Assembly (NCBI RefSeq): GCF_988242995.1
Contig: NZ_OZ547043.1
Direction: 5' to 3' (one strand)
DNA: 64,000 nt
Part shown: positions 59,805 through 62,225 of the stretch, in pieces
Layout: each line of letters starts with the position of its first letter
How positions within the stretch are numbered: the first letter of the stretch is position 1
The notes under the pieces: generated by a model
Databases searched by the model: none
What the model was told of the DNA's origin: nothing
Seen by the model: the letters and a program-made list of their open reading frames with translations, nothing else
Translations under genes and position numbers: made by a program

Positions 59805-59945
59805 ACACTTGTCCCACCTGTCCCAACCTGTGAGAAACACACATAACATACTGAATTATATTGGGCAATATCAGAAAAAGTGGGACAAGTACGGGACAAG
59901 TTAAGGTGATTTTGGGACAAGTTAGGAGCATTTTGGGACAAGTCA
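59805..59945. repeat. iteron cluster 1: four direct GGGACAAGT repeats plus two inverted copies
   Basis: GGGACAAGT at 59882-59890, 59893-59901, 59914-59922, 59935-59943 (11/21/21-bp spacing); inverted ACTTGTCCC 59807-59815 and CTGTCCC 59818-59824; immediately 3' of the primase gene. Confidence 0.7.
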
Positions 59946-60018
59946 GCAGGCGTTATTTTTTGCCTGGCTGGTGGACATTAAAAATCCAACCAACATTTAA
60001 AACCAGAGAGCAGACAAT

Positions 60019-60444
60019 ATGACGGCACAAATATCAGCTTACGGGCGGCTGGTGGCTGACCCGCAGTTAAAAACCACCAGCAAGGGAACACCAATGGCGC
60101 TGGTGAGTATGGCTGTTCCCCTTCCGTGCAGCCAGGCAGATGACGGAACAGCGACGATGTGGTTATCCGTCCTGGCGTTTGGCAGACAGGCCGATGCACT
60201 GGCAAAACACCAGAAAGGCGAACTGGTGAGCGTGGCGGGTAACATGCAGATAAGCCAGTGGACAGACCAGAACGGGGAAATGCGGCAGGGCTGGCAGGTC
60301 ATCGCAGACAGCGTAATCAGTGCGCGAACCGTGCGACCTGGAGGCAGGAAAGGACAGCAAGGGCAGGCTACTGACGCACTGAACAGGGCAAAGCAGCAGA
60401 CGGGCCAGCAGGATGACCCGTATGAGGACGAAATACCATTTTAA
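60019..60444 (+). CDS. ssb: single-stranded DNA-binding protein (SSB-like)
   Basis: 141-aa ORF; OB-fold-like core with WTDQNG motif as in E. coli SSB (…KWTDQSG…) and acidic C-terminal tip DDPYEDEIPF resembling SSB DDDIPF. Confidence 0.7.
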   Translation: MTAQISAYGRLVADPQLKTTSKGTPMALVSMAVPLPCSQADDGTATMWLSVLAFGRQADALAKHQKGELVSVAGNMQISQWTDQNGEMRQGWQVIADSVISARTVRPGGRKGQQGQATDALNRAKQQTGQQDDPYEDEIPF

Positions 60445-60479
60445 CTGCCAGTGGATTCACTAACAGAGGCTAACAAATA

Positions 60480-60650
60480 ATGACTACACTGACTATTAGC
60501 AGAAAACCGAAAGGCATTTACGGCATACCACAGAAAAAGACACAGACGACACAGCAGCAGGATAAAACCACATCAGCGCATAAAGTGATACCCGGCAATC
60601 AGAACGCACCGCAGAGTCGCAAACAGAAACCCACAGGGGCGACACCGTAG
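60480..60650 (+). CDS. possible small basic protein (56 aa)
   Basis: ATG at 60480 preceded by AGAGG; low-complexity K/Q/T-rich product; below the ORF-track size cutoff; coding status unverified. Confidence 0.25.
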   Translation: MTTLTISRKPKGIYGIPQKKTQTTQQQDKTTSAHKVIPGNQNAPQSRKQKPTGATP

Positions 60651-60656
60651 CGGCAT

Positions 60657-61016
60657 ATGACCAAACGCCAGGGCAAAAACCGCAGGCGCGTTAACCGTCT
60701 TATTGAACTATGGCCTGAATTATTCAGCCTGGAATCACCGAAGCCGCTTAAGGTAGGGATATTTGAAGACCTGATACAGGATATTGCCGTCAGGGCGCTG
60801 GCTTTTGGGTCAGGGGCATTACGTGCGGCGCTAGCATCTTATGCTCATTCTCCGCGTTATTACCGTGCCTTAATGGCTGGTGGCGTGCGTTACGATCTGA
60901 ATTGCCAGCCATGCGGTGAGGTGACACAACAGGAACAGCAGGACGCGGAAGCACGACTGATGGCACTGAAAGAGAAGCGCAAACGTAAGTCGAACAAGGA
61001 ACAAGCTGGCGTATGA
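60657..61016 (+). CDS. FinO/ProQ-domain RNA-binding protein
   Basis: 119-aa ORF aligning by eye with the ProQ N-terminal FinO domain (PLKVGIFEDLIQDI vs ProQ PLKIGIFQDLVDRV; YDLNCQPCGEV vs VDLDGNPCGEL). Confidence 0.7.
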   Translation: MTKRQGKNRRRVNRLIELWPELFSLESPKPLKVGIFEDLIQDIAVRALAFGSGALRAALASYAHSPRYYRALMAGGVRYDLNCQPCGEVTQQEQQDAEARLMALKEKRKRKSNKEQAGV

Positions 61017-61297
61017 GTATGATTCACGACAGTAGAGCGGAAGATCTGGAGGCTAAAGGCCTGTACCGGAGAGCGGCGACCCGATGGGCTGAGGTCATGC
61101 AACAGGTGAACACCGATAAGGAGCGCGAACAGGCAGTAAAGCGTCGCGCGGAATGTATCCACAAGGCAGCACGTTCGCCCGTCATGCTGGATAATTTCGG
61201 GGGCTTGAGAGAGGCAGCAAACCGCACACAGGCGGATATGGGGATAGAAATCGCAAAATCTGTCTGGCGGAACTACCAGACAGACAAGGTTTTATAG
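61013..61297 (+). CDS. PerC-like transcriptional regulator
   Basis: 94-aa ORF; motif LEAKGLYRRAATRWAEVM resembles the PerC/Pch family core; start overlaps previous stop (ATGA). Confidence 0.5.
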   Translation: MSMIHDSRAEDLEAKGLYRRAATRWAEVMQQVNTDKEREQAVKRRAECIHKAARSPVMLDNFGGLREAANRTQADMGIEIAKSVWRNYQTDKVL

Positions 61298-61353
61298 TGG
61301 CAGTTCTGCATTATTTTTTGTGTTATTGAGTTGTAGAGCGTTTCAGGAGTTTT

Positions 61354-61563
61354 TTGAATCACATGAACGTTTCGCTGGTGGATATTCTTGACAAGTTGCA
61401 GCCAGGCCGACGCGTGCCAGCTCGCCGCAGTGCCTGGCATCTTCCGTACTTCGTCTTTCTCGAACGGCGCGGAAACGATTTGATTGCGTTGAATCCCGTC
61501 ACAGAGGATAGCGTTACGCTATCTCCTGAGAGTCTACTAGCCACAGACTGGGAGTACTGCTAA
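61354..61563 (+). CDS. hypothetical protein
   Basis: 69-aa ORF with no recognisable motif. Confidence 0.35.
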   Translation: MNHMNVSLVDILDKLQPGRRVPARRSAWHLPYFVFLERRGNDLIALNPVTEDSVTLSPESLLATDWEYC

Positions 61564-62096
61564 ACACAAACGCATCGAGGGTGCTGGCGTGTTGCCAGCC
61601 CCACCCCCTCCGAAATGATCCCCCAAAAAGTACAAAATGATCCTCCATTAACGAACAGAAAACAAACAAACAAAGAGCAACAAATAAGCATTATTTACAA
61701 TTCTTGACAAAAACACCCCCTATTTATAACCCTACCAAATTTAAAATTACATCTACAAAACAATAAGTTACAAAATCAGCAACGGATCATTTCGAAAAAA
61801 ACGGTTAGTCCCTTTTTCGAAAAGGGATCATTTTGTTGCTTAAACTCATATGCGGATTACATATCAATACGCTAGTGATAGCCGTTCTGGAATGCCACAG
61901 AAACGCGCTGTAATCGATTCTGGCGCAATTAGCTGTGCTAGGTAATGATTTACCTATCTGGGGATGTTGCGCACGTCTGGATTGCGTTACCACCGAAGAT
62001 TGTGCGCGTATGGTGGCTGTTACGGTCGCCTCCCGACAACGCAAAATTGCGGCGGCACAGTCGGTTTACCGCGCTAACACGGCTTGATTCACTCGC

Positions 62097-62225
62097 TCGA
62101 CTTGTCCCACCTCCCCCCCAACTTGTCCCAAAACAGCCTAGACTTGTCCCACCTTACCCAATTTATTTCTAACAAAATCAATTTGTTAGGTATCAATGGG
62201 ACAGGTGGGACAGGTGGGACGGGTG
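62097..62225. repeat. iteron cluster 2: three direct ACTTGTCCC repeats and three tandem inverted GGGAC(A/G)GGT repeats
   Basis: ACTTGTCCC at 62099-62107, 62120-62128, 62141-62149 (21-bp spacing); GGGACAGG 62198-62205, GGGACAGG 62206-62213, GGGACGGG 62214-62221; same motif as cluster 1, ~2.3 kb away. Confidence 0.7.

Follow-up and report, generated by a model that had tools for sequence, protein, structure and literature searches.

Two cognate iteron modules, beside the primase-helicase gene and beside cos, as candidate halves of a split origin in an Escherichia coli phage satellite

Introduction

We begin by considering how small mobile elements arrange the short repeats (iterons) that their replication initiators read, and we set these arrangements beside that of a phage satellite of Escherichia coli. 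The satellite lies in a 64-kb stretch of chromosome (contig NZ_OZ547043.1 of NCBI RefSeq assembly GCF_988242995.1, called the window throughout) and carries the iteron GGGACARGT in two clusters, one directly behind the gene of a DUF927 primase-helicase and one next to a cohesive-end (cos) site. Among the described systems, the phage-inducible chromosomal islands (PICIs) have their origin directly 3' of the pri-rep gene, with two iteron sets around an AT-rich region; the pri-ori segment of one of them, EcCICFT073, drives plasmid replication and is a functional replicon (PMC6092414). In the Staphylococcus aureus pathogenicity islands (SaPIs), the C-terminal winged-helix domain of Rep binds iterons just downstream of the gene, arranged as opposed sets around an AT-rich centre, and the Rep family consists of self-loading, MCM-like helicases (PMC9371898, PMC7581432). 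The DUF927 helicase Cch is related to the Rep of SaPIbov1 (PMC7581432).

Two further systems have their repeats at two sites. In the record of phage P4 (NC_001609), the alpha gene occupies 4636-6969 on the minus strand and crr follows directly 3' of it (4291-4590), as two 120-bp repeats with five type-1 repeats in each, a 9-bp tandem pair among them. At a distance of 4.7 kb, the ori repeats (9310-9413) share the type-1 repeats with crr, and have tandem copies beside AT-rich DNA. P4 replication needs both sites in cis. The iteron plasmids (P1 with incC and incA, F with incB and incC) also have initiator repeats in two clusters split by coding DNA, and pairing of the arrays through bound initiator is an established mechanism in plasmids of this type. 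There the second array restrains copy number, P1 incA and F incC being titrating or handcuffing arrays, and the RepA-type initiator recruits the host DnaB.

In the literature that we searched, whose coverage is incomplete, we found no description of a distal cognate iteron module in PICIs or of a link between such a module and cos. In the satellite of the window and in its relatives, iterons of one specificity form two mutually inverted modules (A and B) that are either adjacent or kilobases apart. We think it somewhat probable that the two are halves of one satellite origin, read by the C-terminal tail of the primase and cooperating with each other, by looping when they lie apart.

Two iteron modules in the window

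There are 11 exact copies of the motif GGGACARGT in the 64-kb window and a twelfth with a single mismatch, all 12 of them confined to two clusters; shuffling gives an expectation of 0.55 matches per 64 kb, with a maximum of 3. An earlier note on this DNA, made from the letters alone, had proposed two clusters of one GGGACA(A/G)GT iteron and had given their repeat spacings, and the mapped positions agree with it in both clusters. The features of the two modules and of the gene that precedes them are as follows.

57647..59782, plus strand: DUF927 primase-helicase (Pri-Rep), 711 aa, the presumed initiator (RefSeq: DUF927 protein)
59450..59779, plus strand: codons for the last ~110 primase residues, presumed iteron-binding domain, whose alleles track the iteron
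59807(-), 59816(-), 59882, 59893, 59914, 59935(+): exact GGGACARGT iterons of cluster 1 (module A)
59807..59824, minus strand: tandem iteron pair of module A, 9-bp spacing, 25 bp past the primase stop codon (ORF end 59782)
59825..59881: AT-rich spacer of module A, 57 bp between the opposed iteron sets
59882..59943, plus strand: four phased iterons of module A (11/21/21 bp), conserved in 8 haplotypes
62100, 62121, 62142(-), 62198, 62207(+): exact GGGACARGT iterons of cluster 2 (module B)
62100..62150, minus strand: three phased iterons of module B (21/21 bp)
62151..62197: spacer of module B, with a perfect consensus for integration host factor (IHF), AATCAATTTGTTA, at 62176-62188 and a small palindrome, TAACAAA..TTTGTTA
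62198..62224, plus strand: three tandem iterons of module B, 9-bp spacing
62216, plus strand: GGGACGGGT, third of that tandem set and twelfth iteron of the window, with one mismatch, extending the tandem run

In module A the strands follow the order --++++ with spacings of 9/65/11/21/21 bp, and in module B the order ---+++ with spacings of 21/21/55/9/9 bp. Module B is the inverted image of module A, a relation that the earlier note does not mention: the tandem 9-bp set and the phased 21-bp set have exchanged sides, and the two clusters align as inverted repeats. They are not identical in design, because a (TA)5 element is found on B only and the phased copies number four in A and three in B. 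The poly-C spacer between the first and second copies of module B differs in length by 1-3 nt among strains while the iterons stay conserved.

The position of cluster 1 directly 3' of the primase gene, as the earlier note had it, fits the definition of a PICI origin: two and four opposed iterons surround the AT-rich spacer just behind the stop codon. Within the cluster 1 region, the 20-mer of lowest stability lies in this spacer (at 59843, dG -19.1), and it is the sixth least stable of the island. The tandem pair is matched in position and spacing in nine related loci (L002-L005, L007-L010 and L015). On the side of cluster 2, the AT-rich stretch that had been noticed after the repeats is also present, as TATATATATA at 62232-62241, 8 bp beyond the last iteron. 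The naming of the two clusters as a pair of ori and crr sites fares less evenly. The pair is cognate and conserved, but it is better seen as a split composite origin. Cluster 1 alone already has the layout of a PICI origin.

Composite and split forms in related islands

The iteron cores were mapped in 14 loci, which have five iteron types between them. Module A has the order --++++ with spacings of 9 / 53-65 / 11 or 21 / 21 / 21, and module B the order ---+++ with spacings of 21 / 21 / 55-85 / 9 / 9, with a (TA)n element always following it. Every island examined has exactly two modules cognate to its initiator, and they are always mutually inverted. A second, cognate cluster is a conserved feature of the relatives. 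The distance from A to B ranges from 45 bp to 10.8 kb, and two forms can be told apart. In the composite form, which most relatives have, A and B are adjacent (~45-60 bp apart) and make up a quasi-palindrome of ~300 bp directly after the primase gene. In the split form, A remains beside the primase gene, and B is found 2.3-10.8 kb away, immediately ahead of cos at the island's right end.

Composite loci: L003 (O157:H7), L008 (BL12), L010 (C51), L019 (a metagenomic remnant) and L029
Composite IMG/VR contigs: 8
Split loci: window, L007, L005, L009, L015, L035, L037, L053 and L055
Split distances: 2.3 kb in the window and in E. albertii, 10.8 kb in strain 20, 8 kb in two types of capsid-forming PICI (cfPICI), 7.7-10.6 kb in four IMG/VR contigs

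The distal B of the window and the adjacent B of BL12 share spacer boxes, an IHF-like box and the (TA)5 element, and every iteron copy is changed between them at the same positions (GGT vs ACA). Among six B modules of the TAACCCGCA type, the iterons are invariant and the spacers have diverged; their spacers hold the IHF-like matches CAACATATTGATA and CAACACATTGATA. In two loci of this type, L015 (O177:H21) and L002 (APEC17), the capsid-forming PICI sits inside the terminase large-subunit gene of a prophage, and is thus embedded in a helper, with module B and cos at the junction with the interrupted terL.

For the split, cooperating origin we propose the following mechanism. Each half would be an array of 9-bp sites for the C-terminal domain of the island's DUF927 primase-helicase, which would act as a self-loading initiator like the Rep of SaPIs. 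In the lineage of the window the composite origin would have been split, leaving B 2.3 kb downstream of A and immediately to the left of cos. Initiator hexamers at A and B would then cooperate, looping out the intervening DNA where the halves are apart, as P4 alpha does between crr and ori. The bound initiators would open the AT-rich or (TA)5 DNA, allowing the helicase to load and replication to start. The layout of the modules, its departure from chance, the co-variation of iteron and primase tail, the conserved cognate pairing and the lower variability of iteron positions are observed; the binding of the protein, the looping, the site of melting and the requirement for both halves are what we infer.

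Two complete origins that do not cooperate, placed in inverted orientation beside the primase gene and beside cos, might give the same layout, with forks running in opposite directions or with concatemer synthesis fed towards cos. Either module by itself fits the published definition of a SaPI or PICI origin (PMC9371898; PMC6092414), the A-B distance varies freely over the whole range given above, and a (TA)5 tract and an IHF consensus belong to module B itself. Redundancy alone, however, is unlikely to hold a pattern in which there are always two cognate and inverted modules, and the modules are not equivalent in the (TA)5 element or in the number of phased copies. Independent origins are unlikely in our judgement, though the least unlikely of the competing accounts.

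The C-terminal tail of the primase and the iteron

We turn our attention to the protein that would read these repeats. By its sequence matches the primase belongs to the DUF927 / SaPI-Rep helicase family, with a homologous helicase core: residues 168-435 correspond to Pfam DUF927 (E=4e-46), residues 213-604 match PDB entry 8tch_A, 'Pathogenicity island protein' (E=8e-15), and there is a further match to 5dgk_A, 'Active helicase', an SCCmec helicase (E=0.004). The protein also matches PHROG 1139, 'DNA primase' (E=1e-166).

In a BLAST search with the primase gene, the match to many E. coli islands extends over nucleotides 1-1803 and takes in neither the last ~330 nt nor the repeats. The protein alignment of relatives gives the same picture, with residues ~145-600 nearly invariant and the last ~110 residues swapped as alleles. 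The iteron follows the allele of this tail:

GGGACARGT: tail allele of the window, identical in E. albertii (window, L007)
GGGACAACA: tail 90% identical to that of the window (BL12, L008)
GAGACAACA: tail 51% identical to that of the window (C51, L010, a TOPRIM-DUF927 protein)
TAACCCGCA: tails 44-47% identical to that of the window (L002, L003, L004, L009, L015)

The window-type and BL12-type iterons differ at positions 8-9 only. The N-terminal 145 residues vary too, but do not follow the iteron, as the window and L002 are alike there and have different iterons. Because the iteron follows the tail allele and not the N-terminal 145 residues, the last ~110 residues are the presumed specificity domain that reads the iteron. 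A comparison of iterons across related islands had been named beforehand as a check by the earlier note, and this co-variation is its outcome. Two remnants from other sources add the iterons TGGTACAAC (Yersinia) and TGGGCTAA; the contigs found through tail-only matches are degraded remnants, and still have the same origin design. A scan of genome contigs with the primase alignment gave one locus, in E. albertii, with the same allele, so that sampling across genera is thin.

Pairing, constraint and orphan cassettes

All islands with only A beside the primase gene (window type, strain 20, 23CRST027 and O177:H21) have a cognate B at their right end, and so do 4/4 of the informative IMG/VR loci. 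Among complete E. coli genomes, window-type A is present in 51 and window-type B in 74, with both in at least 42; in 41 of the latter the A-B distance is 2263-2277 bp. For nine A-bearing genomes there is no B among the 60 of 74 B matches listed, and the one of these genomes that was inspected, from a set of three MRE162 substrains, has lost the island's right part. In the one other genome with both modules, E. coli ES2 (L020, NZ_CM184352, about 3900-22830), an element of ~19 kb has been inserted into the ssb gene of a window-type island, and through this restriction-modification island A and B are 21.6 kb apart; the insert contains two integrases, a type I restriction-modification system, DprA, RecQ and an IS3-family element.

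The iterons are also less variable than the DNA around them. Over 8 haplotypes, 6/108 iteron columns vary and 54/335 other columns do (Fisher p=0.005), and for module B alone the variable columns are 3/54 and 37/196 (p=0.02).

Several points weigh against a split origin with cooperating halves. In BL12 (L008, NZ_CP079780) the primase is of the GGGACAACA type and is followed by a composite origin of that specificity (14162-14447), and the module B at the right end of the island (16670-16790) is of the GGGACARGT type. Similarly, K-15KW01 (L014) has a primase of the GGTAGACA type with a composite origin (8793-9000) and a right-end module B (13843-13999) with TAACCCGCA, and at least 18 E. coli genomes have window-type B and lack window-type A. 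The foreign-iteron cassettes in these islands and genomes mean that the B-cos cassette recombines among islands and can persist intact without its cognate partner. Part of the A-B pairing could reflect shared descent, because the split form is seen with only two iteron types, and the constraint test is modest, its p=0.005 coming from 8 related haplotypes. By the paradigm of the SaPIs and PICIs a single module is already a complete origin, so that the second may be dispensable. The case for binding of the repeats by the tail is built on co-variation and on homologous systems. The tail may have a winged-helix fold, but confidence scores (pLDDT, predicted local distance difference test) of 41 and 45 make its two AlphaFold models, from 7 and 22 sequences, unusable, and a PDB profile search with the tail returned no match.

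These exchanges lead to a second alternative, in which cluster 2 is a passenger in a mobile right-end cassette of B, (TA)5 and cos, has no role in the replication of this island, and matches cluster 1 through common descent. The intact non-cognate cassettes of BL12 and K-15KW01 and the genomes with unpaired B are what such a cassette would leave behind, and both flanks of B are conserved across iteron types, which would permit its exchange. On the other hand, in both examined islands with a non-cognate right-end B, BL12 and K-15KW01, the primase already has an adjacent cognate B, and wherever the adjacent B is missing the distal one is cognate. Between alleles, moreover, a homologous B scaffold carries a coordinated change of every iteron copy, and the iteron positions are less variable than their surroundings. 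We regard the passenger as distinctly unlikely.

The plasmid arrays mentioned above suggest a third alternative, a locus for control or competition in which cluster 2 titrates or handcuffs the initiator of its own island, or sequesters that of rival satellites as a form of incompatibility. As in iteron plasmids, the arrays flank a block of genes. The orphan arrays of foreign specificity in BL12 and K-15KW01 could act on other satellites, and the window-type and BL12-type iterons differ in two positions only. Satellites, however, need rapid runaway replication after induction and not restraint of copy number; module B has features of an origin (a (TA)5 tract, an IHF site, opposed iteron sets); and in many relatives B abuts A, within what the literature treats as the origin. 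A control locus is in our view a little more doubtful still than a passenger, and two cooperating halves of one origin continue to be the explanation that we prefer.

The surroundings of module B

The DNA to the right of cluster 2 contains two elements that accompany module B.

62226..62251, plus strand: GTTTTGTATATATATACGAAAAATTG, the (TA)5 element, a candidate DNA-unwinding element, adjoining the tandem set of module B
62252..62384, plus strand: phiP27-type cos region, cohesive-end core about 62298-62307, Chi at 62346-62353

The (TA)5 element holds the 20-mer of lowest stability in the cluster 2 region, the fourth from the bottom in the island as a whole. It stays attached to module B whether B adjoins cos or module A, and it is found in 30 IMG/VR loci. 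As a promoter it was rejected: scanned with the consensus, neither cluster has a sigma-70-like site, and the total number of matches was what shuffling predicts.

The cos site next to cluster 2 was missed by the earlier note. Positions 62293-62338 of the window are 91% identical to phiP27 DNA in which a 10-nt 'cos-site' is annotated, between HNH and terS, and they also match positions 2-47, at the genome end, of the Yersinia phages YeP2 and YeP3. Many E. coli islands keep this cos region at their right end, whether module B is there or not, and the Chi inside it is also present in L005, L006 and L016. The conserved DNA right of cluster 2 is found in several hundred E. coli genomes and begins exactly past the last iteron. 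The island has the phiP27-type cos site and no terminase, portal or capsid gene, which suggests that it is packaged by a helper of the P27/HK97 type or by a capsid-forming PICI.

With cluster 2 ending 70 bp from the cos core, its repeats could be taken for a packaging signal, such as a terminase site of the cosB kind, and two mechanical open reading frames (61945-62172 and 62084-62359) overlap the cluster as if it were part of a gene. Against a packaging signal, cos and (TA)5 are constant while the adjacent iterons (GGGACARGT vs TAACCCGCA) follow the primase allele; L016 has a cos region without module B, and in composite origins B is far from cos. A terminase or cosB-like site is rejected on these grounds, as iterons change with cos constant and each occurs without the other. 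A coding role for the repeats in homologues had been named in advance as a point to examine; no RefSeq gene extends across cluster 2, the repeats are completely replaced between alleles, and there is no conserved reading frame, because the poly-C spacer varies by 1-3 nt among close strains. Cluster 2 as coding DNA is thereby rejected, and packaging signal or gene part, taken together, is barely credible as an account of it.

There is also the thought that the place of B and (TA)5 beside cos is itself functional, coupling the loading of the initiator to packaging, with the B-cos cassette as a currency of competition between satellites; we give it small credence. Forks or rolling-circle synthesis could be directed through cos, giving concatemers for the terminase, and an island with an orphan cassette of foreign specificity might be replicated by a co-resident satellite or might titrate its initiator. 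The tenfold, co-oriented enrichment of Chi sites facing the cos end would fit a concatemeric or linear-end lifestyle.

The island and its genes

The island measures ~9 kb (about 54400-63365) and lies in the E. coli chromosome at tRNA-Pro, between yejM and yejO. Its bounds are the tRNA-Pro gene (54339-54415) and a damaged tRNA 3' fragment (~63348-63365), from which the right end was placed by eye; an exact-repeat search for the attachment (att) site found none. The left half holds, in order, an integrase, a 63-aa AlpA-like helix-turn-helix (HTH), excisionase-like protein, an ash/icd-like region, DUF4222 and the 711-aa DUF927 primase-helicase. The right half continues with cluster 1, ssb, a ProQ/FinO-like gene, perC, ~800 bp of mostly non-coding DNA, cluster 2, a PmgG-like gene and the damaged tRNA 3' end. 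The genes int, HTH/excisionase-like, icd-like, DUF4222, primase, ssb and perC are all on the plus strand. Further features of the island are:

56826-56913, plus strand: C4 antisense RNA (Rfam, 76 bits), inside the ash/icd-like region
60019-60444, plus strand: ssb, between modules A and B
60480-61016, plus strand: ProQ/FinO-like gene, between the modules, in-frame TAG at 60648
61013-61297, plus strand: perC, between modules A and B
62526-63122: PmgG-like gene, the only morphogenesis-like gene of the island
55784, 56641, 57557, 58592, 58654, 59967, 60048, 60876, 61374, 62346, plus strand: Chi sites
59185, 60074, minus strand: Chi sites

This gene order matches that of the Gram-negative PICIs of Fillol-Salom et al. 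2018 (PMC6092414). The element is small, is inserted at a dedicated att site and has an integrase, an AlpA-type regulator, genes in one direction and a helper-type cos site; it is a phage satellite of the PICI type. Close relatives of its primase are found in capsid-forming PICIs, including the O157:H7 island at roxA/pepT. The C4 antisense RNA indicates an RNA immunity module of the P1/P7/P4 style upstream of the primase gene. An Rfam scan of 59700-62600 found no structured RNA, and elsewhere in the island just a tRNA and the C4 antisense RNA.

The window is 99% identical over 16 kb to E. coli LH13-b, and a single base differs in the compared part at ~56.7-63.4 kb. This base creates the TAG at 60648-60650 in the ProQ/FinO-like gene, where LH13-b, PKF4 and 042 have TGG (Trp57).

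Chi (GCTGGTGG) is about 5-fold enriched in the island, which has 12/24 of the sites of the window in its 9 kb. Within the island 10/12 are on the plus strand, and in the flanking 54 kb 10/12 are on the minus strand. In this orientation the island sites would be active for RecBCD entering at the cos-side end, and they may protect concatemers or linear ends. The non-coding stretch at 61560-61850 contains AAATGATCC in direct orientation at 61613 and 61635 and inverted at 61784 and 61825, together with a terminator-like hairpin (61808-61828) and an A/C-rich tract, and it is conserved in BL12. The IHF consensus has only 5 matches in the 64 kb, and the identical 13-mer AATCAATTTGTTA of the module B spacer recurs at 63318-63330, ~25 bp from the right island junction. 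Repeats of the TTAGTTATA type near both island ends (54538 and 63262) look like integrase arm sites.

Comparison with known systems

Among the closest described systems are the replicons of Gram-negative PICIs such as EcCICFT073, which shares with the window the order int - alpA-like HTH - icd-like - DUF4222 - primase - ori - ssb - perC - cos at a dedicated att site, and an origin right after the primase stop in which several opposed iteron sets surround an AT-rich region. It differs in having a primase of another family (584 aa), the iteron GGTAGAYA and all of its sets within ~230 bp beside the gene, whereas the window has half of its origin (module B and (TA)5) 2.3 kb away at cos.

The SaPIs have in common with the window a homologous helicase core, an origin just downstream of the gene with short opposed iterons flanking an AT-rich centre, and a specificity that lies in the C-terminal domain in the SaPIs and presumably here too, to judge by the co-variation with swapped alleles. 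The window, in contrast, belongs to a Gram-negative host, its iterons are of 9 bp and not of 5-6 bp, and its helicase is fused to a primase; the SaPIs have one module, and the window has two complete modules, which may be kilobases apart. From the iteron plasmids, which also have two clusters of initiator repeats separated by coding DNA, it differs in having a helicase as its own initiator and in being a satellite, which amplifies once induced.

The comparison with P4 needs more care. In both elements one iteron cluster lies directly 3' of the initiator gene and a second lies kilobases away; in both, the clusters have mixed orientation, tandem pairs at 9-10 bp and tandem copies that adjoin AT-rich DNA. 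In position, crr of P4 is the counterpart of cluster 1, and ori that of cluster 2 with its (TA)5. The differences are as clear. The iteron is TGTTCACC in P4 and GGGACARGT here, as the earlier note had expected of a different iteron; the second site of P4 is not beside cos; and crr is a direct duplication of 2 x 120 bp. Neither the island open reading frames nor the RefSeq annotation include sid, delta or psu of P4. The primase has no detectable similarity to P4 alpha by BLASTP (best E=1.2); as a positive control, alpha and the primase of the PICI L016 align over 489 aa with 48% identity. Membership in the P4 system is rejected on this result. Since the primase is unrelated to alpha, the resemblance to crr and ori is architectural only, and the island is, by analogy of layout, a functional analogue and not a member of the P4 system. 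Of the P4-style two-site origin that had been proposed, the same iteron at two loci with one 3' of the initiator stands; homology of the initiator to alpha is not found.

The locus of this positive control strengthens the analogy. L016 (NZ_CP032145) has its primase at 7538-9355 and all copies of the P4 iteron in one composite origin (9369-9592), with no separate crr-like site. Because this alpha-type PICI is composite and P4 is split, the split and the composite form both occur in two unrelated initiator families of the same kind of element.

Significance

The origins of PICIs and SaPIs have been described as one locus downstream of the initiator gene; here a second cognate half is present in widespread satellites of E. 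coli. This distal half is up to ~11 kb away at the packaging site and follows the specificity of the primase tail, including in capsid-forming PICIs. The parts are familiar, and it is the split layout, its recurrence beside cos and the parallel with P4 that are new relative to the literature searched, within its incomplete coverage. The natural swaps of specificity, four related tails paired with four iterons, offer a direct way to test how this initiator family recognises its sites.

If both halves are needed, minimal replicons or synthetic PICI vectors made from 'pri-ori' alone could be incomplete for these lineages, and the mapping of origins and the annotation of satellites should include the distal module. 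The ori and crr of P4 would then be one instance of a solution that has recurred in two unrelated initiator families.

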